Source of the DNA: a virus | Lineage: Duplodnaviria; Heunggongvirae; Uroviricota; Caudoviricetes | Virus record (IMG/VR): IMGVR_UViG_2563366942_000005 | Location: 1-23,814 of that record | Direction: 5' to 3' (one strand) | DNA: 23,814 nt | In this document: positions 1,292-22,833 of the stretch, one piece after another | Layout: every line of letters starts with the position of its first letter | Numbering within the stretch: position 1 is the first letter of the stretch | The notes under the pieces: generated by a model | Told to the model about the DNA's origin: nothing | What the model saw: the letters and a program-made list of their open reading frames with translations, nothing else | Databases searched by the model: none | Program-made: the position numbers and the translations under genes

Positions 1292-1759
1292 TTATTTTTT
1301 CTGCATTTGACCGAGTGTAATTACAGTTATTAATATGATGTGAATAATATTAAGAATGAGAATGTATAAACCACATTTCAAAATTGTCAATGCAACATTA
1401 AATGGCATTATGATAGCCACCATGCATAATAAAAATGTGACCAATAAAAAAACAATGCTCTGCCCATATAGATGGTAGAAGATATTTATATATCCTTGCT
1501 GTCGCCACTTTAGAAAAGAAGTTTTATCAGACACTGATATGATATAAGCACCAATTGCAGCAATGAATCCTGTCATTGTGAAACTAAAAGTACCTAATAG
1601 TGTAGCGATGCCAATTATACCTTCAGGTTTTATCTCTATGTATTGGTTTTCACAAAACACCGCAATGAGAGTAAAAATAACAGCAGTAAGAATGCTTACA
1701 CCCCATGTGGCTATATTAATTTTTACTATTGCTTGGTTAGTAAGCATTGTCATCCTCAA
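1292..1759 (-). CDS. Small multi-pass membrane protein (155 aa), hypothetical; putative effector of a two-gene cargo module
   Basis: The protein is dominated by about 4-5 long hydrophobic segments (e.g. WGVSILTAVIFTLIAVF, IIGIATLLGTFSFTMTGFIAAIGAYII, IVFLLVTFLLCMVAIIMPF, LYILILNIIHIILITVITL). Its start overlaps the upstream gene's stop (ATGA at 1756-1759). The region is AT-rich relative to the flanking satellite genes. Confidence 0.6.
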   Translation of the reverse strand: MRMTMLTNQAIVKINIATWGVSILTAVIFTLIAVFCENQYIEIKPEGIIGIATLLGTFSFTMTGFIAAIGAYIISVSDKTSFLKWRQQGYINIFYHLYGQSIVFLLVTFLLCMVAIIMPFNVALTILKCGLYILILNIIHIILITVITLGQMQKK

Positions 1760-2697
1760 CTTTTTGCTTTGTGGTAACTTTCTGTTTTTAGATCATTCCA
1801 CACTGGATCAATAATACCTGAATGTATGCGTCCAGTAAAATTTTGTGCGTATGTACTCAATTCACTTATCACAACTTGGTTTTTGTATCTTTTTTCAAGT
1901 ATTTGATCTTCAATCTTTACTTTGAGATGAGGGTTTATTATATCAAAAATATTCTGATTCTTATCTAAAATAAACTCTTTTACATTTGATTGAAATTCAT
2001 CTGCCTTGGCTCTGAAATAAATTTCTGCATACTCTTTATCTTCAGATGAAGATAAACTTGAGAGTAATGGTTGTATATAATCTTTCACATTCTCTTTTCT
2101 ATTTTTTCTTTTTACGATAATTTGCACTTCCATATTGTCTGATGGGGCCTTGCCAAACAATCCATTTATTACATCTCCAACAGAATCATTATTTAACTTC
2201 ACTCGTGCTTCAGTGATGAGTTTGAATTTTGTAGCCGATGTAGATTTGATTTCTATTTTTAATGTGCAAAGCTCGAAGGTGTAAATATGTGATTGAAAAT
2301 CTTGATTAATTATTTCGTTAATGAAGAATTGCAAATCATCAATGTCAGCATTACCTTTACCCTCGGTTACTCCGATTATTGAATGTTTAGGGTCAATAAA
2401 AAAGTAAGTAACTTTCTCTAGACTATCTTTACCAAGTACAGAAGCCAAATCATTTACTACACCAGTTGCTCTATCTACAGCTTTAAATGCTGTAGTAATT
2501 GCTGGCGTGGTCAAATAGTATATGCCATCAAATGAGGTGGGCATGGCTAGGTACAGTCTTTTTAACCCTTTGTTTTTCTCAAAAAGAGATTTTTTTCTAT
2601 GCAAACAAAAATTTTTGATAATATCTGAAATGTTATCAAAATAAACTTTTTGATTTCTATTGTCGGTTATTGTGTAAGTAAAATAATTTAACTTCAT
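1756..2697 (-). CDS. Hypothetical protein (313 aa), soluble, no recognisable motif; upstream partner of the membrane protein
   Basis: Long ORF with the start ATG at 2697 preceded by an AAAGAGA Shine-Dalgarno-like sequence. It is AT-rich and translationally coupled to the 155-aa membrane protein. It occupies the position of the P4 gop/beta/cII variable region between int and cos. Confidence 0.65.
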   Translation of the reverse strand: MKLNYFTYTITDNRNQKVYFDNISDIIKNFCLHRKKSLFEKNKGLKRLYLAMPTSFDGIYYLTTPAITTAFKAVDRATGVVNDLASVLGKDSLEKVTYFFIDPKHSIIGVTEGKGNADIDDLQFFINEIINQDFQSHIYTFELCTLKIEIKSTSATKFKLITEARVKLNNDSVGDVINGLFGKAPSDNMEVQIIVKRKNRKENVKDYIQPLLSSLSSSEDKEYAEIYFRAKADEFQSNVKEFILDKNQNIFDIINPHLKVKIEDQILEKRYKNQVVISELSTYAQNFTGRIHSGIIDPVWNDLKTESYHKAKS

Positions 2698-10275: not shown

Positions 10276-10484
10276 TTTCGAAAAAAAATTTTTTATGTGG
10301 ATAAAAGATGCACTGGTTTGGATCCGAGCTACGGATCCAAACTTACTGATTAAAAATGATTTAACTTTCCGATTTATTGATGGGCTGAAAATAGATTGGT
10401 CAGAAAAACAGTGGGGGCACAAAAGGGGGCATATTTCATTGTTGTGTTTTATTATTTGTTTTTTATCATTAACTTATTTTGATG

Positions 10485-10506
10485 TTTGAGTCCGGCCTTC
10501 GCACCA
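10485..10506 (+). other. attR: partial direct repeat of a tRNA-Leu 3' end (integration-site core)
   Basis: TTTGAGTCCGGCCTTCGCACCA closely resembles the 3' end of E. coli leuX tRNA (TTCGAGTCCGGCCTTCGGCACCA, from memory), with no tRNA body upstream. The position just past alpha/crr is where attR is expected. Confidence 0.6.
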
Positions 10507-10895
10507 CATCGTATGCAAATCGAGTCGCTCAAGGGCGGCTTTTTTTGTGCCTGTGTTTTCACTACTTTGTTTGTATGTAACGCTGATAATCTAAGAACTT
10601 CGGAAGCCCCATTCCCATCAATGATGTTCATTCATCATCCTGAAAATTAAGTAGATATAAAACTTCATTGCCTTGGTCTAATGGCTCAGGAAATAGATTG
10701 CATTTAGCGAGTGGCATTCTTAATGTGCCATTGTTTAGCCATGAAACGATGCGTAAAATTGCTGATTTTATGTGTCAAAGGCCCGCAACCGGAGATGTCC
10801 TTACTTCAAGGATCAACCACTATTGGCGTATCCTTTTACTATCTTGATTCAATTCAGCAGGTTATCGTCAAAAGTACAGCGAAGAGAGAGAAAAG

Positions 10896-13787
10896 ATGAT
10901 TGGTACAACACCTTATCATGCGAAATATTTTGCGCATGAACTTTCCATTCTCCATTCAAACAATGGGGTGGACCGTCTGTCTCAATCGCTGTTTGATGCA
11001 AGCGTAGATCTAAATCCTCATCAAATTGAGGCGGCTCTTTTTGCTATTGAAAATCCGCTAAGCAAAGGTGTTGTGCTTGCCGATGAAGTTGGTTTAGGTA
11101 AAACCATTGAAGCGGGGTTAGTGCTTTGCCAGTTGTGGGCTGAAAGAAAACGTAAACTGTTGATCATTTGTCCTGCTTCACTGCGTCGCCAATGGGCGAG
11201 CGAGTTACAGGAAAAGTTCAATCTACCTTCTCAGGTGTTGGACGCGAAAACGTATAGCCAGCTTCAAAAAGAAGGGATCCATAATCCCTTAAATAATAAA
11301 TCGATCACTATCATGTCATACCACTATGCTGCTCGGTTAGAAGAAAAATTGGTGGCTGAAATGTGGGATCTGGTTGTTATCGACGAAGCCCATAAACTGC
11401 GTAATGCTCATCGAGAAAGTAACAAAATGGGGCAAGCGTTAAAGCGTGCGCTTGATGGGCGGAAAAAATTACTACTGACCGCAACGCCTTTACAGAATTC
11501 GTTAATGGAACTGTATGGCATGTCGACGCTTATAGATGAACATACCTTCGGCGAAGTTAAAGCGTTCAGAAAGCAATATATGCAGGCAGATAGCGATATT
11601 GCGGAGTTGAAGGGGCGATTGTCGCGTTTTATCAAACGAACTTTACGCAAGAATGTGCTGGAGTACATCAAGTATACAGAACGTAAAGCGATCACTATTC
11701 CTTTCTATCCGAGCGAACAGGAGCAGGATCTTTATGAACGCGTACAAAAATTGCTTGAACGTGAGGATAGCTATGCCTTACCAAAACGACACCGGCATCT
11801 GACGGGGCTTATTCTCAGAAAGCTACTTTCCTCAAGTACGAAAGCTGTATTGAATAACTTGCAGATCCTTAAGAGTCGTTTAGAAAGGTTAAAGCTGGAA
11901 GGTATCGTTGAAGATGATATGAACATCATCCAACAGATCATAATGGATGACGATCTTGAAGATGACATCGTGGAAGATGCCGAATCAGTGGCTTTAGATA
12001 CCGAGTGCAAAGTTGTCGATTCAGACGCGCTTCAGGCAGAAATCAATGAGCTGGAATCACTCATTGTCAAAGCAGAACAGATTGGCACTGATACCAAATC
12101 AAAAGAGTTGCTTTCTGGCCTGGAGCAAGGTTTTGCACAGCTTGCCGAAATGGGGGCTGCAAAAAAAGTCATCATCTTCACGGAGTCAATGCGAACTCAA
12201 CAGTATCTTGCACATTTTCTGGAAAACAATGGCTACCAGGGGAAAGTAGTAACCTTTAGTGGCACAAACAATACACCGCAGGCAAACAAGATCTACCAGC
12301 AATGGCGCGAGGAATATCAGGGATCTTCTCGTATTACCGGGTCGGCGCAAATTGATAAACGCTCGGCTTTGATCGACCACTTCAAAGATCATGCTGAAAT
12401 CATGATAGCTACAGAAGCTGCAGCTGAAGGGGTGAACCTGCAATTTTGTTCGCTACTGATCAATTACGATTTACCCTGGAACCCACAACGCATTGAACAG
12501 CGTATTGGACGTTGTCACCGATACGGGCAAAAATTTGATGTGGTTGTTATTAACTTCCTCAATCAGCGAAACCAGGCCGATCAACGCGTTCTTGAACTCT
12601 TAACTGAAAAGTTCAGCCTGTTTGATGGCGTGTTTGGCGCATCGGATAGTGTGCTTGGCAGCATAGAAAATGGTGTGGATTTTGAAAAAAGGATCCAGTC
12701 AATTTATGAGTCATGCCGTACCCCCGAGGAGATAGAGCTGGCTTTTGAAAGGTTGCAGAAAGAGCTGGAAGATGAAATCAATCTCAAGATGCAGAAGACG
12801 CAAGAACAGTTGCTTGAGCATTTTGATGAAGATATTCACGATATCCTTAAAATAAGGCTTGATGAAGCTCGGGAGCGTCTGGATAAAGTCGGTCGTTGGT
12901 TTTGGGCCGTGACCTGTCAGCAGCTCAAACAATATGCTGATTTTGATCATGAGCATCATCGTTTCACTTTACGTGAATCAGTAAATGAACTGCCTGTCGG
13001 GCAGTACCAGCTGTTGCGCAAAGATGGTAGGCAAAATAGTGCGTTACAAATGCAGGATCACCACAGTTTTGCATATCGGATCAATCATCCGCTGGGTGAG
13101 TACGTCATTGAGGGGGCTAAGGTCCAGGAGACGAAAACAGCTGAAGTCATCTTCGATTACAGTAACCACACAACGAAAGTCTCGGTGGCTGAGCAGCTGA
13201 AAGGGCAATCAGGGTGGTTAACACTAAATTTGCTTACTGTTGATGCGTTTAACAGGCAGCAATTTTTAGTCTTTACCGCAAAAACTGACAACGGACGTGT
13301 GGTAGATGGTGAAGCTTGTAAACGTCTGTTCAACTTGTCTGCAATAACCAACGAAAAGCTGGATAATTCGGCAAGTTCAGATGCATTACCTGATGACTTG
13401 ATCTTACTCAAGAACAGGCAAATTGACGCCAGACTTGCGGAAGTTCTGGAGCAGAACAATGTCCTTTTTGAAGCTGAAAGAGATAAGCTGGAAAAATGGG
13501 CTGAAGATATGATCTTTGCGGCGGAAGAAGCATTACGCGATACCAAAATGCAAATCAAGTCGTTAAAGCGAGAAGCCAGACTGGCGCAATCGATGGAAGA
13601 ACAAAAGCAAAACCAGGAAAAGCTGAAGCTACTGGAACGGCAGCAGAAACGCCAACGTATGGAAATTTTTGACATTGAAGATGAGATCGCTGACAAGCGG
13701 GATGAACTCATCAGTGCCCTTGAAGAGCGGATGAAGCAAAAAACGGATATCACCGAGCTTTTTTCCATCCGCTGGAAAGTTATTTAA
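10896..13787 (+). CDS. SNF2-family (SWI2/SNF2) helicase/ATPase with about 400-aa coiled-coil-rich C-terminal extension; DrmD-like
   Basis: 963 aa with helicase motifs I (LADEVGLGKT), II (VVIDEAHKLRN), III (LLTATPLQNS) and VI (QRIGRCHRYGQ). It is the first gene of an AT-rich three-gene operon, with AGAGAGAAAAG upstream of the ATG. Confidence 0.9.
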   Translation: MIGTTPYHAKYFAHELSILHSNNGVDRLSQSLFDASVDLNPHQIEAALFAIENPLSKGVVLADEVGLGKTIEAGLVLCQLWAERKRKLLIICPASLRRQWASELQEKFNLPSQVLDAKTYSQLQKEGIHNPLNNKSITIMSYHYAARLEEKLVAEMWDLVVIDEAHKLRNAHRESNKMGQALKRALDGRKKLLLTATPLQNSLMELYGMSTLIDEHTFGEVKAFRKQYMQADSDIAELKGRLSRFIKRTLRKNVLEYIKYTERKAITIPFYPSEQEQDLYERVQKLLEREDSYALPKRHRHLTGLILRKLLSSSTKAVLNNLQILKSRLERLKLEGIVEDDMNIIQQIIMDDDLEDDIVEDAESVALDTECKVVDSDALQAEINELESLIVKAEQIGTDTKSKELLSGLEQGFAQLAEMGAAKKVIIFTESMRTQQYLAHFLENNGYQGKVVTFSGTNNTPQANKIYQQWREEYQGSSRITGSAQIDKRSALIDHFKDHAEIMIATEAAAEGVNLQFCSLLINYDLPWNPQRIEQRIGRCHRYGQKFDVVVINFLNQRNQADQRVLELLTEKFSLFDGVFGASDSVLGSIENGVDFEKRIQSIYESCRTPEEIELAFERLQKELEDEINLKMQKTQEQLLEHFDEDIHDILKIRLDEARERLDKVGRWFWAVTCQQLKQYADFDHEHHRFTLRESVNELPVGQYQLLRKDGRQNSALQMQDHHSFAYRINHPLGEYVIEGAKVQETKTAEVIFDYSNHTTKVSVAEQLKGQSGWLTLNLLTVDAFNRQQFLVFTAKTDNGRVVDGEACKRLFNLSAITNEKLDNSASSDALPDDLILLKNRQIDARLAEVLEQNNVLFEAERDKLEKWAEDMIFAAEEALRDTKMQIKSLKREARLAQSMEEQKQNQEKLKLLERQQKRQRMEIFDIEDEIADKRDELISALEERMKQKTDITELFSIRWKVI

Positions 13788-13807
13788 TTGATTTGAAAGA
13801 GAAAATA

Positions 13808-16800
13808 ATGAGTAAGTACAACGAATTAGTTAAGAAGCTAAAAGAAATTTTTCAGATTGATCGACCAGAACTGGATTTCGGTATTTATCGTATTTTAAAT
13901 GCACGTGCTGATGAAATTAACGACTATCTGGATAATAAGCTGAAGGCCAAAATCCAGTCTGCGCTGGCGGATGCAGGAAATGCCAATAAATCAGAATTAG
14001 AACATCAGTTGCAACTGACAATAAAAGCGGCAACTGATGCGGGTGTGGACCCTGCTGATAGCCCGAAAGTACAGGAGCTTAAAAAGCAACTGGCGGCTAT
14101 GGCATCCGGAGCAAATGAGCATGAAAATGCAGTATTTTCCCATCTGCTGACTTTCTTTTCGCGTTATTATGACAACGGCGATTTTATCAGCAAACGCCGT
14201 TATAAAGGTAATACCTACGCCATCCCTTATTCTGGCGAAGAAGTGATGTTGCACTGGGCAAATAAGGACCAGTACTACATTAAAAGCGGTGAAAACTTTG
14301 CTAATTATTCATTTAAATTAGATGATGGTCGTAAAGTTAGCTTTAAATTGCTCGCAGCGGACACAGCAAAAGATAACCGTAAAGATAATGAATTAGATCG
14401 CTGCTTTGTACTTATTGAGCCGCATGTTCGTACCAAAATTGATGAAGAAGGCGATGAGTACGAACAAGAATATAAGCCAGTAGAAGTGGTGAAAACTTCA
14501 TCTGTGGTTGACGGTAAACTCGTTGAAACAGAAGAGTTAGTTATTCACTTCGAATATAAGGCCATGAAAAAGGGCACTAAGCAGGATGCTTTAGTGCAGT
14601 CCGCTATTTCAACAATTCTGGCTGATAAAACAGTTCAACAGCATTGGGTTGATCTTGCTAAACGTGCGCCAACAGAAAAAAATCCGTCACGTACAGAGTT
14701 GGAGCGTCATCTTACAACTTATACCCAGCGTAATACAGCAGACTACTTTATTCATAAAGATCTCGGTGGTTTTTTAACTAACGAACTGGATTTTTATATT
14801 AAAAATGAAGTAATGAATCTCGATAATGTGCAAAATGCAGAAGTGTTTGCCAATATTGAGAAACAATTGCGCATGATTCAATGTTTGCGTACTGTTGCGC
14901 TGGAACTCATTGCATTTTTGGCACAAATTGAGAATTTCCAGAAGAAACTTTGGACTAAGAAGAAGTTTGTTGTTTCAAGTAATTACTATATTACTATGGA
15001 CAAAATAAGTTCAGAGTTTTACAGTGAAATAATTAATAATGAAAAAATAGTCCAAGAATGGATTGAATTAGGCATCTTAGATGAGAAGCCATCTACCTCT
15101 GATGTGGAGTTGCTCAAGTTTGCAACAGTTAATTTATCTCATTTAAACGGAGATCTAAGGAAAAAAATATTAAATAGTATCAATGATATTGACGATAATG
15201 TTGATGGCGTTTTTATTAATGGTGATAATTATCAAGCGTTAAATCTTTTGAAGAAAAATATAATTCCGTAATTGATTGTGTCCATATAGATCCACCATAT
15301 AACACAGATACTAGTGGTTTTTTATATAAAAATAGCTTTAAGCATTCAAGTTGGCTGAGTATGATGGATAGCCGTTTGCTTTTTGTTAAAAATTTACTCA
15401 GTGAAAATGGTGTATTTTTTTGTCATATTGATGAAAATGAATATGAGCGACTTTATTTAATTAATAAACAGTTAGGTCTTATCGATGCAGGGACAATTAT
15501 TTGGGATAAACGCAATCCCATGAATGGTGGTAGTGGCATTGCGATTCAACATGAATATACTACTTGTTTTACAAAGAACATGATTTCTATTAATAAGAAA
15601 AATGAGAATGTATTAGAAATACTCGAATATGCAAAATTAATTAAGAATAAATATCCTGTAATTAACAGTGAAGCAAAGAAAAAATTTTATGATTGGGTAA
15701 CAAAGAATAAAAAACTTACTGGAGGTGAACAAGCTTACAAATATATCGATGAGAAAGGTCGAGTGTACCAGAGTGTCAGCCTCCGTGCCCCAGAGCCAAG
15801 GACTGACAAGAAATTCTATATACCATTAATTCATCCAGTTACCGGGAAACCATGCGCTATGCCACCAAATGGTTTTTCTCGTACCCCAGAAACATTAAAA
15901 GATATGATGGATAAGGGGGATATACTATTTGGTGTTGATGAAACAACGCAACCTAGACAGAAAGCATATTTATATGCTGACGCTAAAAAGCAAATAACAT
16001 CAATAATTCAGGATGCTAAAAAAGGAAAAACTCAAACAACTCATCTTGGAATTGATTTTCCTTATTGTCACTCAACTTCTTTATATAATTATTTAATTGG
16101 GAGTGCATCTCATAATAAAAATGAGATAATATTAGATTTTTTTGCTGGTTCAGGAACAAGTGGCCACTCAGTCATAGAGTTGAATCGTAAGGATGCGGGT
16201 TCAAGGAAATATATACTTGTTGAACAGGGGGAGTATGCACAAAATGTAACTTTAAGCAGGTTGAGAAAAGTTATATTCAGTAGCAATTGGAAAGATGGTA
16301 AAGCTATGGATTCAACGACAGGCTCATCTCATATACTTAAAGTTATGAAAATAGAAAGTTACGAAGATGTATTAAATAGCCTTCGATTTGAACAACAAAA
16401 AGAAATAAAAGATCTTTTTGATACAGTGAATGAATCAGTAGCAAATGAGTATTTAATAAAATATATGCTTGAAACAGAAAGCAAAGGTTCACTACTCAGT
16501 ACTGATAATTTCAAAAAACCATTTAACTACGAAATGGATATTGCGACGGATTCCGCCGGTGCCACTGAGCGTAAAAACATCGATTTAGTTGAAACTTTCA
16601 ACTATCTCATTGGTTTACATGTGAAATCCATCGAATCCAATATCGAACGTGGCTATGTGCGTGTTGAAGGAATGCTACCAACAGGCGAGCGTACCCTTAT
16701 TCTGTGGCGCGATTGCGACAAGATCGGTTATGAAGAATTGAATAAATATGCCAGCCGATTCGATTTATATGCAAAAGAAAACACGTTCGACGTTATCTAT

Positions 16801-16929
16801 ATCAATGGCGATCATAACTTACCTACCGCCTTTACCGTTGATGAAGAAGACGGCGAGATTGTTCGTAGCCTGAAAATCCGCCAGATCGAACCTGAATTCT
16901 TGAACCTGATGTTTGCGGAGGAGGTTTAA
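13808..16929 (+). pseudogene. Large beta-class N6-adenine DNA methyltransferase (about 1040 aa if fused), split by a frameshift near 15229-15271
   Basis: The N-terminal ORF (frame 2) ends at 15271 just after ...GDNYQALNLLKKN. Frame 1 is open from 15229 and reads SVIDCVHIDPPYN (motif IV, DPPY) and then DFFAGSGTSGHSVIELN (motif I, FxGxG). The two halves are one methyltransferase with the frame shifted inside an A-rich stretch (GAAGAAAAATATAAT). Start ATG taken at 13808 (MSKYNEL...). Confidence 0.8.
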
Positions 16930-17291
16930 GAATGGCTAAAAAACCAACCACCGGTAAAGCTGTTAAAAAAGAGACAAACAGCAAACTGAGCTTTCATAAG
17001 CAACTGGTTTTGAACCGCTTTATGTTCCATTTTTTTAAAGATGGCACATTGCAAGGTTTAAAGAATCGGTTAGGTGAAGATCGCTTTGAAGGCATCCATG
17101 AAGATGGCCAAAGCTTGTTCTTCCATGAGCTGAGTAACTATTTATTCGAGGTCGATCTTATCGATCTCGATGAACTGCGTCGTTACGATCTCAATATCGT
17201 ACAGCACTGGCAGCAGATAACTGAGCACCGTAATCGGGTGATGCTGCCAACTTACTGATTTAGTGTATGATGGTGTTTTTGAGGTGCTCCA

Positions 17292-17567
17292 GTGGCTTCT
17301 GTTTCTATCAGCTGTCCCTCCTGTTCAGCTACTGACGGGGTGGTGCGTAACGGCAAAAGCACCGCCGGACATCAGCGCTATCTCTGCTCTCACTGCCGTA
17401 AAACATGGCAACTGCAGTTCACTTACACTGCTTCTCAACCCGGTACGCACCAGAAAATCATTGATATGGCCATGAATGGCGTTGGATGCCGGGCAACTGC
17501 CCGCATTATGGGCGTTGGCCTCAACACGATTTTACGTCACTTAAAAAACTCAGGCCGCAGTCGGTAA
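17292..17567 (+). CDS. insA: IS1 InsA (transposition inhibitor / N-terminal part of InsAB' transposase)
   Basis: 91-aa protein [42 protein letters not shown]..., matching IS1 InsA. Confidence 0.95.
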
Positions 17568-17989
17568 CCTCGCGCATACAGCCGGGCAGTGACGTCATCG
17601 TCTGCGCGGAAATGGACGAACAGTGGGGCTATGTCGGGGCTAAATCGCGCCAGCGCTGGCTGTTTTACGCGTATGACAGTCTCCGGAAGACGGTTGTTGC
17701 GCACGTATTCGGTGAACGCACTATGGCGACGCTGGGGCGTCTTATGAGCCTGCTGTCACCCTTTGACGTGGTGATATGGATGACGGATGGCTGGCCGCTG
17801 TATGAATCCCGCCTGAAGGGAAAGCTGCACGTAATCAGCAAGCGATATACGCAGCGAATTGAGCGGCATAACCTGAATCTGAGGCAGCACCTGGCACGGC
17901 TGGGACGGAAGTCGCTGTCGTTCTCAAAATCGGTGGAGCTGCATGACAAAGTCATCGGGCATTATCTGAACATAAAACACTATCAATAA
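17486..17989 (+). CDS. insB: IS1 InsB reading frame (expressed as InsAB' transposase by -1 ribosomal frameshift)
   Basis: 167-aa ORF matching IS1 InsB (...[50 protein letters not shown]...). It overlaps insA in the -1 frame. Confidence 0.9.
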
Positions 17990-20900
17990 GTTGGAGTCAT
18001 TACCCGTAATCGCAAAGAAGACACCGTGCTGAATATGAAATATTTTCAGTACTTGTCGCTTCTGTTTACCGAGATCTACCTGGACTGGTACTTCAATCGT
18101 AAACAGCAATTACTCGATGGGCTAAATAACGAGCTGGCAGCATACAATGCTGAAAATGATAAAACAGCAAAAGACCGGGCTAATCAGTTCAAATCATACA
18201 TTCTAGATGACTTGAATAAACTTGCATACTGGAACGCTACCGGTTCGGGTAAAACACTGCTATTGCATGTCAATATTTTGCAATATTTACATTATTTCCA
18301 GAACGGTAATACCCACCATTACCCGGATAAAATCATCCTGCTTACGCCGGATGAACGCCTGTCGAAGCAACATTTAGATGAGCTGGAAAACTCAGGATTT
18401 ACCCAATACCAGTTATTCGATAAGAGTAAATCTGCGCCCTTCAAAGGCACGATTGAAGTTATTGATATCAATAAACTTGCCGATGAAATGGGTGACAAAA
18501 CTGTTGCCGTTGAGGCATTTGAAGGCAACAATCTGGTTCTGATTGATGAAGGGCATAAAGGCACCGGAAGTGCTGCTGGTGCCTGGATGCGCCGTCGTGA
18601 CAAATTAACACGTGACGGATTTGCGTTTGAATATTCAGCAACTTTTGGCCAGGCAGTAGCCGGTGGCAATAATGTTGAGGCAGTTGAAACAGAAATTCAG
18701 AAGAAAAAAGCAAAGCTGCTTTTTGAAACAACGGCCTTAGGTAAACTGAACGAAGAAGAGTTAGCGCAAATAGCATTAACCAGCGAAGAAAAACGAGATG
18801 CGCGTATTCAGGCGACGCGAGAGGTCTATGGAAAATCGATTCTGTTCGATTACTCCTATAAATTCTTCTATGAGGATGGTTATGGTAAAGAATCACTGAT
18901 TCTTAACCTTAATCCTGAAGAGGATAAAAAAGATGAGCGTCGGTATGAGTATTTTACCGCGTGTTTGCTCAGCTTTTATCAGCAACAATATTTATTCAAT
19001 AAGAATAAAGAAAAATTAAGTGAATTTAATATCGAAAAACCGCTGTGGGTTTTTGTCGGTAATACGGTAAGTGGTGAAGATTCAGACATTCACGCAGTAT
19101 TGCGTTTTTTAGCATGGTTTTTAAACCACGAAACGCAGGCAAAAGCGTGGATTAACGATCTCATTAAAAATAAAGCGCGAATCCTCGATACCAAAGAGCG
19201 TAACATTTTTGAAAATCGCTTTACTGCACTAATGAACGCTCCGGAAGATATCTACGCAGATATTCTTTCTCGCTTGTTTAACACCACTCACTCTGGTCAG
19301 CGACTGCGAGTTCTGAATTTAATAGGCAGTAAAGGTGAACTGGCATTACAGGTTGGTGAGGCCGAACCGTTTGGCCTTATCAATATTGGTGATGCACCGT
19401 CTCTTTACAAAATGTGTGAAGAGGATACGACATTTGATTATCAGAGAGATGATTTTGCAAAGTCACTCTTTCATACGTTAAATGACAAAGACTCGCGACT
19501 ACATATTTTGATCGGCTCGCGAAAATTTACTGAAGGCTGGAGCAGTTGGCGCGTCTCAACGATGGGATTGCTCAATATGGGCCGTGGAGAAGGTTCACAG
19601 ATCATTCAGTTATTTGGTCGTGGCGTACGCCTTAAAGGTCGCAATTATTCTTTGAAACGCAGTACACCCGGTGAGCGTCCGAAAGGGTTGCATCTGGAAA
19701 AATTAGAGACACTGAATGTATTCGGTGTACGTGCCGATTACATGGCAACCTTTAAACAATACCTGGAAGATGAAGGGATTACGCCAAGTGACGAGATCCT
19801 TGAGCTGAATTTTGAAACTCGGCCAAATATGCCAGCAACCAGGCTTAAAACACTTAAGCTTAAAGATGGTTATAAAGATAATCAAAGACTCGGCTTTAAA
19901 CGTGTCTATTTTCCCGAATTGTATGAAGTTCCTGCTGATTTTCAGGGGAAAATTAAGCAGCCGCATATTAAGCTGGACTTATACCCGAAACTTGAGTCGA
20001 TTGATACCAGCAGAAAAGGGGACAATACTCCGGTTAACGTGCGCAATGAAGCGAAGTTAGATTATAAAATCATTAGTGCATTTGATTTTGATCGGCTTTA
20101 TCTCGCCATTCAGAATTATAAACTACAACGCGGCTGGTCAAATTTACGTGTGGATAAACAACGTTTGATCGACTTTTGTACCGGTAAGACAAAGATCGGA
20201 AATAGTTGGTATACCCTTTTGATTCCAGCTTCAGAGCTTGAGATTAAGCAATATGCAGATATTGCTAAGCAGGAAGATATTATGCTTCGTCTGCTGACTG
20301 ATTATACTGATCGCTTTTACAACACCTTGAAAAATGCTTATGAAGGTCAGTTTTATGAAGTCACGCAGGTGAAAGAAGATGATCCTGGTATGATCAAAAT
20401 GTACCATTTCGAGATCGAAGAAACTGATGATGGGTTGGCTTATGCCAGTCGGCTGGAACAATTACAACAATTGGTCATCGACGGCGAAATCGGTAAAGCA
20501 AAATCCTGGAGTGCATCCGGGATGGTTGCTATTACCTTTGATAAACATCTCTATTACCCGCTTCTTTCGATTGAAAAAAATGCCAATATACCGCTAAAAA
20601 TGCGACCGGCAGCACTTGGTGCGCCAAGCGAGATTACTTTTGTTCAGGATCTTCAGTCTTTTGTTGATTCGACAAAAGGGCAGAAAATTATTGGTGATAA
20701 AAGTTTATATCTGCTAAGAAATGCGGATTCTAAAAATAAAGGCCTGGGCTTTGCTACTGCGGGTAATTTTTATCCGGATTTCTTATTGTGGTTAGTCGAT
20801 GATAAAAGTGGTAAACAATGGCTAAGTCTTATTGATCCAAAAGGCATTCGCAATCTTAATCTTGATGATCCGAAGTTCGGATTATATAAAGAAATTAAGA

Positions 20901-21100
20901 ATCTTGAACATAAATTATCGGATGATAACTTATCATTAAGTGCATTTATTGTTTCTGAAACTTGTTATGTTGACTTAGTAAACGTACCTGACTCAAAAGA
21001 AAATCTGGAAGCCAGAAATGTGCTTTTTATTGAGGATACAGGCCCCGTTTATCTGGAGAAGTTATTCAGTAAGATGGTTAGCGAGTAAATAATTATGATT

Positions 21101-21131
21101 CTGTTCCATATCTCTGTGAGATATGGAACAG
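21101..21131. terminator. Strong hairpin between convergent genes (likely bidirectional terminator)
   Basis: CTGTTCCATATCTC-TGTG-AGATATGGAACAG forms a 13-14 bp perfect stem. It lies 13 bp after the operon's last stop codon and immediately after the stop of the minus-strand 100-aa ORF. Confidence 0.6.
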
Positions 21132-21134
21132 ATA

Positions 21135-21437
21135 TTATCGCCAATGTGCAGGAATAATTAGGTCAAACGATTTTGCTGCATATTCAAGCATTTTTATTAT
21201 TTCCCTGTGTCGTTCCTGGTCGAACGGCTGTCCATTTTTTCTACACTCTATAATCCCTTGTAACTCTTTTAGGTTAAACATATCAAGAAGATAAAAGTTT
21301 TTCCATGTTGGTTGCCCGAAGAGGTTATAGACTGTTTCTGTAGCATCTCTCTCACTTGCTAATCTTTTCTCTCCGTCTATTTTTTCAAAAAATATTTCAG
21401 CTGTTTCTTTATCATCATAAGTATTTAACAATTCCAT
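21135..21437 (-). CDS. Hypothetical small protein (100 aa), AT-rich orphan
   Basis: ORF of 100 aa (MELLNTYDDKETAEIFFEKIDGEKR...) on the strand opposite to the operon. It is AT-rich and has no recognisable motif. Confidence 0.45.
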   Translation of the reverse strand: MELLNTYDDKETAEIFFEKIDGEKRLASERDATETVYNLFGQPTWKNFYLLDMFNLKELQGIIECRKNGQPFDQERHREIIKMLEYAAKSFDLIIPAHWR

Positions 21438-21749
21438 TATGATTTTCCTGATTAATGAATTGATATCACGATAATTATATCATGAATAGATGTAAATTTA
21501 CTATGTATATAAATTAGTGTACAATTCAACATGCCAATTGTTTTTTAATTTGTAATTTCGATTGGTTAATAACTGGATTCTCTTATAATGAATATATATT
21601 TACTCTGACTAGAATATTTGTAAACGTATTTTATATTGAGATTTTAAAATTGATTTGTGGCTATGTACTCATAAATACTACTTTCGGTGTCAGAAAATAC
21701 TTTATCTATTACATTTAAAATCCTAGGTGAAAGATATATAATGGCTACC

Positions 21750-22622
21750 TCACCCCCTAAAAACCTCTTTTCGATGCCACTCCACAAACCCCTCAAAAGG
21801 GTAATTTTTACGCACCTGTGGCAACGCAATAGTTTTCCCGTCAAAATCCCAGAATAATCTCTCAACGATCCCTCCGCCGTTTACCGCATCCGAGACCAGT
21901 ACCCGCATATTTTCATCCAGGCCAATCGATCCTTTATCAAAGGCTTTATGGTGTATTGCGCAAAGCGCCAGACCATTGGGGATTTCACAAGGGCCGCCGT
22001 GCTGTTTCCATTTTATATGCGCCGCTTCCAGCGCGACGGTGGTGTCGTCGTGGCGCATATTAAAGCCACATATCGCGCACTGGTAGTTATAAGCGCGTAA
22101 TACATTTTTGCGAAATAACGGGTCGCGCTGTTTACGGATTTGCTGGAGATCAAAACCCAGCTCGTCAGCAATTTCTTCCTGAATACTCTCGGTGAAGTGC
22201 GCTTCGAGTATCTGTTGCGCCAGAGTATTGATGAGTTTTTTATTGCCGGTTACCAGGGCGTAGTGCTGTTCATCGAAACCGCCTGCAACGTGGTATTCGT
22301 TCAGTTCCTTCACTGGCGGTTGTCGGCTGCTCCCTGCTGTTGAGCAAAGCTCGGCATTGTGTAATTGCCAGAATCCGTCGCCTTGTAATCGCCAAAACGG
22401 CATATCAGGTCGGTACTGTGAACGCTGTGGCCCAAAACGTTCCAGTAAACTGTGCAGAGGTTCGTAGATTTCCGATCCATAATCGAAAAGGCGTGGATGT
22501 CCATTCAGGTATCCCGCTAATACGTATAGCAATAACAATGGTTTATGCGGTGCGCGCTGTTCACCCTTATGCCAGATTTTTATATTGGCAATTGCCTGCT
22601 GTAGCGATTTACTGGAAGCCAT
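21750..22622 (-). CDS. HNH-motif endonuclease with N-terminal uncharacterised domain (candidate modification-dependent/Type IV-like restriction nuclease); start taken at the Shine-Dalgarno-supported ATG (MASSKSL...)
   Basis: The C-terminal region carries an HNH signature (YQCAICGF...ALEAAHIKWKQHGGP...NGLALCAIHHKAFDKG). The six-frame ORF extends to a TTG at 22679, but AGGGA precedes the ATG at 22622. Confidence 0.75.
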   Translation of the reverse strand: MASSKSLQQAIANIKIWHKGEQRAPHKPLLLLYVLAGYLNGHPRLFDYGSEIYEPLHSLLERFGPQRSQYRPDMPFWRLQGDGFWQLHNAELCSTAGSSRQPPVKELNEYHVAGGFDEQHYALVTGNKKLINTLAQQILEAHFTESIQEEIADELGFDLQQIRKQRDPLFRKNVLRAYNYQCAICGFNMRHDDTTVALEAAHIKWKQHGGPCEIPNGLALCAIHHKAFDKGSIGLDENMRVLVSDAVNGGGIVERLFWDFDGKTIALPQVRKNYPFEGFVEWHRKEVFRG

Positions 22623-22833
22623 TGATATCCCTGGCAGTGAAATAATTGCGATCATGCTCGCAAATTTTCTGCTGTTCAAGCCTGCAAGTGAAGATATATT
22701 ACCTTGATCTCATTTGTTTTTTTGCTGCCTGTGTGCCCTAATTGCCATGCGATGTTGCACCGACGCAAACCACCGTTTATGCCGGAGGAGTTAAAAGCGC
22801 TGATGGATGCGAATAAATCAAATTAATGAACGC

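Follow-up and report, generated by a model that had tools for sequence, protein, structure and literature searches.

The three large genes at positions 10896 to 21088 of the window, the whole 23,814-nt stretch of DNA analyzed here, are very probably an inactivated copy of an Eco86II-type Type III restriction-modification (R-M) system that carries an extra SNF2-family ATPase gene. The triad is already known as a published system and is not a new kind of defense. An earlier note on this DNA had inferred either a minimal helicase-methylase-ATPase architecture of a distinct kind or a degenerate relative of DISARM; neither reading is supported, because genes 2 and 3 match Type III Mod and Res and the unit is published as Eco86II. 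A described system with the same gene content was what the note itself counted against its reading and, with the exception of SNF2 function, the publication of this gene content as Type III Eco86II provides one.

Organization of the locus and its lesions

All three genes are on the same strand, and the coordinates and intergenic gaps reported earlier are confirmed. The SNF2 stop codon ends at 13787 and the mod ATG is at 13808, a gap of 20 bp, and the mod stop codon ends at 16929 with the res ATG at 16932, a gap of 2 bp; the GGAGG upstream of res lies within the end of mod. A purine-rich or GGAGG stretch precedes each of the three start codons, in keeping with the ribosome-binding sites proposed previously. 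The locus was also correctly described as an AT-rich block following the attR of a satellite, with a GC content of 32 to 45% at the three-gene locus compared with 55 to 62% in the satellite. We note that the attR sets the left border of the R-M module, and homology to Escherichia coli NCTC86 begins at 10482. The features are as follows.

10488..10507, + strand: P4-like satellite attR, duplicating the tRNA-Leu (leuX) 3′ end (GAGTCCGGCCTTCG-CACCA matches the tRNA-Leu 3′ end in L006)
10896..13787, + strand: SNF2-family ATPase, intact, 963 aa (SNF2-rel_dom, 8.5e-37; Helicase_C, 1.6e-21)
13808..15271, + strand: mod 5′ part (M.Eco86II allele), encoding the N-terminal domain of about 460 aa and extending up to the frameshift, a single-base gap relative to the intact NCTC86 allele
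15259..16929, + strand: mod 3′ part in the original frame, with the motifs DPPY and FAGSGT on either side of a variable target-recognition region, followed by a conserved C-terminal domain
16932..17236, + strand: res 5′ fragment, codons 1 to 102, truncated by IS1
17237..18004, + strand: IS1, 768 bp; the 8 bp of target sequence duplicated on insertion (CGTAATCG) occupy 17229-17236 and 18005-18012
18005..21088, + strand: res 3′ fragment, with the SF2 translocase core and a C-terminal PD-(D/E)xK nuclease domain
21135..21437, − strand: convergent 100-aa open reading frame (ORF) that accompanies the cassette in Gammaproteobacteria without being specific to it

A frameshift and an IS1 had been mentioned earlier, and both lesions can be placed against the intact NCTC86 allele. 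The frameshift is in mod, where one base is missing from an A-run at approximately 15253 to 15258, near codon 483, and the predicted ORF of the mod 3′ part begins at 15361; res is interrupted by IS1 in codon 102. The intact proteins are 963 (SNF2), 1,040 (Mod), and 1,126 (Res) amino acids long. Since IS1 splits res and mod is frameshifted, both restriction and modification are lost in the window copy, and the SNF2 gene is the sole intact member of its triad. The IS1-res junction was found in none of 5,426 complete E. coli genomes.

The convergent 100-aa ORF adjoins res in Serratia, Salmonella, Shewanella, Arsukibacterium, and Pseudomonas, and has no match in Pfam, PHROGs, or PADLOC. It was considered as a fourth component and rejected, as the family also borders unrelated methyltransferase-containing defense operons.

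Identity with the published Eco86II system

Setting aside IS1 and the one deleted base, positions 10482 to 21600 are 99.96% identical to E. coli NCTC86, and E. coli F9792 and B4103-1 match the locus at 99.9%; relative to the M.Eco86II allele, the window mod has two substitutions in addition to the 1-bp deletion. According to Murray et al. (2021, PLoS One, PMC8259958), Eco86II, EcoF9792I, and EcoB4103II come from these three strains and form a "third group" of Type III R-M systems that mark N4-methylcytosine (m4C), and only one Type III system is present in NCTC86, its extra helicase gene lying 5′ of mod. The paper provides no locus tag, and we equate the window locus with Eco86II because the paper credits NCTC86 with just this one system, including the 5′ helicase gene, and because the two other named strains share the locus. 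The gene order (helicase-like ATPase, mod, res) is the same, and the Res motifs that the paper describes (GSGKT, DExH, and a C-terminal PD-(D/E)xK) are all present in the window, although the window copy differs from Eco86II in being dead for restriction and modification.

Several properties of the system are taken from the same paper (PMC8259958). SMRT sequencing and LC-MS place the Eco86II mark, m4C and not m6A, at the fourth base of GAGCC, a motif common to EcoF9792I and EcoB4103II. Cutting by Eco86II is partial, about 25 bp 3′ of the site, with plasmids carrying head-to-head sites and ATP in the buffer. The additional helicase-like ATPase gene 5′ of mod, whose linkage is reported for more than 500 genomes, is required neither for methylation nor for in vitro cleavage, and mass spectrometry of the active enzyme fraction did not detect its product. 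The earlier designation of gene 2 as a beta-class N6-adenine methyltransferase therefore stands as to its class, with DPPY placed before FAGSGT, but not as to adenine, given that M.Eco86II makes m4C.

The triad distribution, the permuted gene order, the loci with Mod and Res only, and the use of the mod-res junction as an insertion slot are added here to the account of Murray et al. (2021); the accessible part of that paper (PMC8259958) is silent on the Mod N-terminal domain, the permuted order, and the mod-res cargo slot, and the SNF2/DrmD-like class of the extra ATPase is assigned here and not there. Literature searches by the three WP accessions returned no papers, and a search for follow-up work on Eco86II or its extra ATPase found none.

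Mod and Res are Type III subunits

The earlier remark that the methyltransferase and SF2 helicase echo Type III Mod/Res is borne out by full-length matches to PADLOC models derived from REBASE, by fold, and by motifs. Gene 2 codes for a beta-class amino-methyltransferase with the motif order DPPY ahead of FAGSGT and a target-recognition domain between the motifs, is kin to known Mod subunits, and resembles Type III Mod in both sequence and fold. The PADLOC MTase_III model matches Mod over its full length, the mod 5′ part accounting for positions 1 to 489 of the 1,057 in PDLC03646. As in the classical Type III systems EcoP15I and EcoP1I, a beta-class Mod with an internal target-recognition domain is encoded directly upstream of Res, here in one operon, and, as PMC8259958 reports for Eco86II, the site is asymmetric and cut about 25 bp away; Eco86II-type systems differ in marking m4C where EcoP15I and EcoP1I mark m6A. 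Mod is also much longer here, at 1,040 aa compared with 644 aa in classical Type III, with conserved N- and C-terminal extensions. The N-terminal domain of about 460 aa is family-specific and highly conserved, and the N-terminal 480 aa have no match in Pfam, PHROGs, or PADLOC. The structure was predicted on a 46%-identical homologue, P0379, for which confidence is moderate (pLDDT 70) and the most conserved N-terminal segment is modeled with low confidence.

Gene 3 has the architecture of a Type III Res, with an N-terminal SF2 ATPase/translocase followed by a C-terminal PD-(D/E)xK nuclease, as in EcoP15I and EcoP1I. The SF2 core motifs (Walker A ATGSGKT, DEGH, SAT, and QxxGRGxR) are invariant, and the PD-(D/E)xK positions (E975, P1023-D1024, and (D/E)1043-P-(K/H)1045) are invariant or nearly so among 65 diverse homologues. 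We note that this nuclease motif at the end of gene 3 was overlooked in the earlier note. The PADLOC REase_III model matches Res over its full length and is the only PADLOC model that gene 3 matches. The predicted structure is confident (pLDDT 90), and a fold search places the helicase core nearest to Type I HsdR, SNF2 ATPases, and EcoP15I Res; whole-chain searches are dominated by this core, and the nuclease fold is not separately matched. An alpha-beta-beta-beta-alpha-beta order is predicted around the PD-(D/E)xK motif, which fits a restriction-nuclease core. Res has diverged from its classical counterparts, as neither the single sequence nor the 65-sequence family profile finds a match among PDB sequences, and the C-terminal 326 aa have no match in Pfam, PHROGs, or PADLOC.

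The SNF2 ATPase and related defense systems

The third gene of the set, extra relative to classical Type III, is gene 1. Its product, a DrmD-like SNF2 protein with a sub-cutoff score, is what was described for the Eco86II group as an "additional helicase-like ATPase." Its best match is DrmD (PADLOC, 1.3e-199, over residues 31 to 680 only), and it scores 667 bits against NCBIfam DISARM_DrmD_b, below the cutoff of 950, over model positions 22 to 664 of 868. It also matches PADLOC models for BrxHI/BrxHII (1.8e-75) and, in the SNF2 core only, HmaA (7.6e-58). Residues 680 to 963 are a family-specific C-terminal region with a coiled-coil-like stretch at the end, 45 to 70% conserved across 30 loci; the C-terminal 313 aa have no match in Pfam, PHROGs, or PADLOC.

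Class 1 DISARM (DrmD, DrmMI, DrmA, DrmB, and DrmC) likewise has a DrmD-lineage SNF2 protein beside a methyltransferase and a large helicase in a defense island, with drmMI following drmD as mod follows the SNF2 gene, and the locus might be imagined as a degenerate or minimal form after loss of DrmA, DrmB, and DrmC. We regard this as very improbable, since the DrmD_b match is partial and below cutoff, the SNF2 C terminus is different, the methyltransferase belongs to another family, its sequence and fold being those of a Type III Mod, and gene 3 matches REase_III only. The HMM comparison suggested earlier divides, with full-length Type III matches for Mod and Res and a DrmD match short of its cutoff, while none of the three genes has a PADLOC match to DrmA, DrmB, DrmC, or DrmMI. 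The DISARM partners are absent, DUF1998 and PLD as the earlier note had observed and the DrmA/YprA helicase as well, with no DUF1998 or PLD domain in genes 2 and 3 by Pfam, no DUF1998 or PLD gene in the annotation of the equivalent stretch of strain F163, and no regular DUF1998 and PLD partners across 79 loci. Moreover, the three-gene set is ancestral and widely conserved and is not a remnant.

An Hma (helicase-methylase-ATPase) or ARMADA-type system has a negligible probability, despite the HmaA and BrxHI/BrxHII matches and a gene content that is analogous to ARMADA type II, in which an SNF2 motor, a methyltransferase, and a helicase-nuclease also form one operon in E. coli defense islands. 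Hma comprises an SNF2 protein with a NOV_C nuclease (HmaA), an m5C or Trm14-like methylase (HmaB), and an AAA+ ATPase (HmaC) (PMC11232893), but gene 1 lacks NOV_C by Pfam, none of the three genes has a PADLOC match to HmaB or HmaC, and the enzyme types differ. ARMADA type II pairs the SNF2 protein ArmA with a PglX-like methyltransferase (ArmB), a YprA-like helicase with a DUF1998 module (ArmC), and a UvrD helicase (ArmD) (PMC12458937); every partner family is different here, with gene 2 being Mod-like and not PglX-like, gene 3 lacking DUF1998, and no UvrD gene in the annotation of the equivalent F163 stretch, and homology is shown for the SNF2 core only. BREX-related BR systems were also considered and rejected.

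Distribution of the triad and linkage of SNF2

Intact orthologous operons, which the earlier note proposed looking for, exist: the NCTC86 copy is intact, and of 63 informative loci spread over many phyla, 54 retain all three genes. Seven loci have the permuted order mod-res-SNF2, six of them in Pasteurellaceae or Neisseria, and five loci have Mod and Res without SNF2. The mod-res junction is an insertion slot for other defense genes.

Does the SNF2 gene belong functionally to the Type III system, or is it an independent neighboring defense or repair gene that frequently hitchhikes with Mod-Res without joint function? In favor of the latter are the five SNF2-free loci, the published dispensability of the ATPase for methylation and its absence from the active fraction (PMC8259958), and the activity of kin SNF2 proteins elsewhere, in DISARM, ARMADA, ietHAS, and HmaA. 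It is also consistent with pairwise distances across 30 loci, for which the Mantel correlation is 0.87 for Mod-Res and only 0.47 for SNF2-Res, and with this looser coevolution a physical complex of SNF2 with Mod-Res is at most putative. Against independence are the retention of the triad in distant phyla, a linkage that outlasts reordering in seven loci, the association in more than 500 genomes that PMC8259958 reports, the same-strand placement just 20 bp from mod, and the conserved family-specific C-terminal region, and on balance we consider hitchhiking unlikely.

Proposed mechanism and implications

In the intact system, as reported for Eco86II, Mod recognizes the asymmetric site 5′-GAGCC-3′ and places m4C on the fourth base of one strand, and Mod with Res cuts unmethylated DNA about 25 bp 3′ of GAGCC. 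SNF2 is an accessory, needed for neither methylation nor in vitro cleavage, and in vivo would act as a double-stranded DNA translocase, helping Mod-Res to restrict incoming DNA or regulating that restriction. It may be coupled to Mod-Res through two extensions particular to this family, the SNF2 C-terminal domain with its coiled coil and the Mod N-terminal domain of 460 aa. It is conceivable, if doubtful, that the three-component form is a mechanistically distinct class, in which SNF2 docks on the Mod N-terminal domain and provides a second, DISARM-like mode in vivo, for example by acting on DNA that escapes two-site cleavage or by stripping proteins off injected DNA. We note that the linkage is strong and ancient and that SNF2 is dispensable in vitro, both of which bear on this possibility. 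If true, such docking would make these systems a link, in evolutionary terms, from Type III R-M to DISARM and ARMADA.

The window locus itself carries little weight, as it is a dead copy of a published system in which standard tools already recognize a Type III Mod and a Type III Res. The broader pattern is that linkage between a DrmD-lineage SNF2 motor and one Mod-Res family persists in many bacterial phyla, though the motor is dispensable in vitro. The correction from adenine to N4-cytosine methylation matters for the methylomes of strains with intact copies, and knowing what SNF2 does in vivo would reveal how classical restriction and newer methylation-based defense come to use the same motor proteins.

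A three-gene operon with two lesions

The operon codes for an SNF2 ATPase (gene 1), a methyltransferase (mod, gene 2), and Res (gene 3). Below, the ORFs are those of the ORF list, and IS1 was delimited by alignment with L001, the intact locus of E. coli NCTC86:

10488-10507: attR, a tRNA-Leu 3'-end copy
10896-13787: gene 1 ORF, intact, 963 aa
13793-15271 and 15361-16929: methyltransferase gene, split over two ORFs
16932-17258: 108-aa ORF
17237-18004: IS1, 768 bp
Between the 108-aa and 1020-aa ORFs: IS1-sized ORFs
Ending at 21088: 1020-aa ORF

Window positions 10482-21600 align with L001 at 99.96% identity, and relative to it the window copy carries two lesions. The methyltransferase gene is frameshifted near codon 483 by loss of one base from an A-run (A6 to A5, ~15253-15258), and gene 3 is interrupted in codon 102 by IS1, with an 8-bp duplication (CGTAATCG) on both sides of the element. 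In the intact form, genes 1, 2, and 3 code for 963, 1040, and 1126 aa, are separated by 20 bp and then 2 bp, and have purine-rich or GGAGG sequences preceding their starts; GC of this block in the window is 32 to 45%, versus 55 to 62% in the P4-like satellite on the left. The ORF, gap, GC, and attR data thus bear out the anatomy described in the earlier note, including gene positions, gaps, motifs upstream of the starts, the AT-rich block, and attR.

Homopolymer slippage is the classic route to phase variation of Type III mod genes; we note that the A-run here is short for this. At least 80% of the locus is present in 48 of 5426 complete E. coli genomes, and because none of the 5426 contains the window's IS1 junction, the inactivation is private to the window's strain. 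Restriction systems are expected to lose the nuclease first or along with the methylase, an order that the broken res and mod fit.

Identity with the Eco86II Type III system

Type III systems in which DNA is protected by N4-methylcytosine (m4C) are the subject of Murray et al. 2021 (PMC8259958). In the "third group" of that paper, represented by Acinetobacter species H and E. coli NCTC86, a further conserved gene, for an SF2 helicase-like ATPase, lies directly 5' of mod. The authors find this gene linked to Mod-Res in >500 genomes and give its role as unknown, and they assign to NCTC86 only one putative Type III system, Eco86II (PMC8259958). F9792 and B4103-1, listed in Table 4 with a motif identical to Eco86II's (PMC8259958), match our locus at 99.9% identity in sequence searches. 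From these matches we strongly infer that the window locus is the Eco86II system, for which the paper itself lists no locus tag (PMC8259958).

[quoted passage not shown] Given this match, the methyltransferase is not the N6-adenine enzyme proposed in the earlier note, since near-identical M.Eco86II makes m4C in GAGCC, nor is the unit a new architecture, having been published as an Eco86II-type Type III system (PMC8259958). The resemblance to Type III Mod/Res proposed alongside stands, on the Res architecture, the Mod fold, and the published identity.

At the Res C-terminus, E975, P1023-D1024, and (D/E)1043-P-(K/H)1045 vary little or not at all and sit on a predicted alpha-beta-beta-beta-alpha-beta unit with the layout of a PD-(D/E)xK nuclease. 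Type III Res proteins have a helicase and then a nuclease. Our sequence analysis and structure predictions show the Res motifs for ATPase and nuclease, a Type III fold in Mod, and the SNF2 core of gene 1. Conservation across the Mod family peaks at residues ~113-162 (within window 13808-15250; FFSRYYD.GDFIS.RRYKG.TYAIPY.GEEV.LHWANKDQYY.KSGE, many residues invariant), yet this stretch is modeled with very low confidence in a homologue (pLDDT 22-32), as might be seen for a region that becomes ordered only when bound to a partner.

The domains of gene 1 are SNF2-related and Helicase_C. DrmD is its top match in PADLOC and NCBIfam, with DISARM_DrmD_b (NCBIfam) scoring 667 bits, below its cutoff of 950, and covering residues 31-680 only; residues 680-963 are family specific, 45 to 70% conserved across 30 distant loci, and close with a coiled-coil-like stretch. 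None of the three genes matches the PADLOC models DrmA, DrmB, DrmC, DrmMI, HmaB, or HmaC, and DISARM and Hma identities were rejected. Hma (an SNF2-NOV_C protein, an m5C or Trm14-like methylase, and an AAA+ ATPase; PMC11232893) and ARMADA type II (a PglX-like methylase, a YprA-like helicase, and a UvrD helicase; PMC12458937) are analogous in logic, but their protein families differ.

Neighboring genes and cargo

Three other features of the window were noted:

1292-2697 (-): AT-rich gene pair (32 to 34% GC) in the int-psu hotspot of the P4-like satellite
21135-21437 (-): 100-aa ORF convergent with res
21750-22679 (-): SBD-HNH restriction endonuclease, phosphorothioate-DNA-binding, adjoining the Type III module

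Judging from its 313-aa (Pfam RexA, 43 bits, cutoff 25) and 155-aa (PADLOC RexB, weakly, E 6.6e-6) products, the int-psu pair seems to be satellite cargo of a RexAB-like, abortive-infection kind. The 100-aa ORF, noted also with L086-L090, has no family match; its relatives make up 115 protein clusters, and its organism-named matches are all Gammaproteobacteria. It accompanies Eco86II-type cassettes of Enterobacterales, Shewanella, Arsukibacterium, and Pseudomonas, and also lies at the edge of unrelated methyltransferase-containing defense operons, beside DUF1156-DUF499 operons (Aeromonas, Marinomonas) and N6_N4 methylases (Pseudoalteromonas). The SBD-HNH endonuclease, whose NCTC86 copy scores 438 bits with NCBIfam PT-DNA_restrict, thus makes modification-dependent and modification-blocked nucleases neighbors at the leuX hotspot.

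The mod-res junction is only 2 bp in E. coli. Many loci of other phyla (L011, L013, L014, L038, L045, L049, L054, L057, L059, L061, L073, and others) have one or two extra genes there, including YhcG/DUF1016 PDDEXK nucleases, AAA_21 with DUF4276, PLD, AIPR, and Abi_C proteins, which makes it an insertion slot for other defense genes.

Distribution and the role of the SNF2 protein

The Res family is a large one, with 780 representatives at E < 1e-30 (clusters at 50% identity), and relatives are encoded in at least 553 stretches of a species-representative genome collection, in phyla including Pseudomonadota, Chlorobiota, Nitrospirota, Chloroflexota, Planctomycetota, Acidobacteriota, and Spirochaetota. 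Gene order was counted in the 63 loci with enough flanking DNA: SNF2-mod-res in 47, mod-res-SNF2 in 7, mod-res without nearby SNF2 in 5, and decayed or otherwise irregular in 4. Six of the mod-res-SNF2 loci are from Pasteurellaceae or Neisseria; the seventh, from Thermoanaerobaculales (L072), has only a weak SNF2 match. Orthologous operons, which the earlier note proposed seeking, thus keep SNF2, mod, and res together in 54 of the 63. Ahead of mod, two SNF2-less Chlorobiaceae loci (L074 19-7033; L077 3116-6103) encode NACHT-FGE-sulfatase-domain proteins, 790 to 995 aa long, that look like STAND-type defense genes.

The three-gene feature is already known, and for the window copy the question of what the SNF2 protein does is moot, because res and mod are both broken. 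Site recognition and m4C methylation are the Mod step, as shown for the near-identical Eco86II allele; methylation is reported not to require the extra ATPase, and mass spectrometry of the active fraction did not detect it (PMC8259958). Pairwise distances correlate closely for Mod-Res (r = 0.87) and less so for SNF2-Res (0.47) and SNF2-Mod (0.41), which fits a Mod-Res core pair with SNF2 as a looser accessory. A gene that merely hitchhikes with Mod-Res seems unlikely, and a functional tie is suggested by SNF2 linkage persisting where the genes are reordered. We tentatively favor a reading in which the SNF2 protein would work in vivo as an accessory translocase, aiding or regulating restriction and possibly docking through the extensions peculiar to this family. 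The probability left by these two readings goes to different accessory roles, restraint of self-cleavage being one example.
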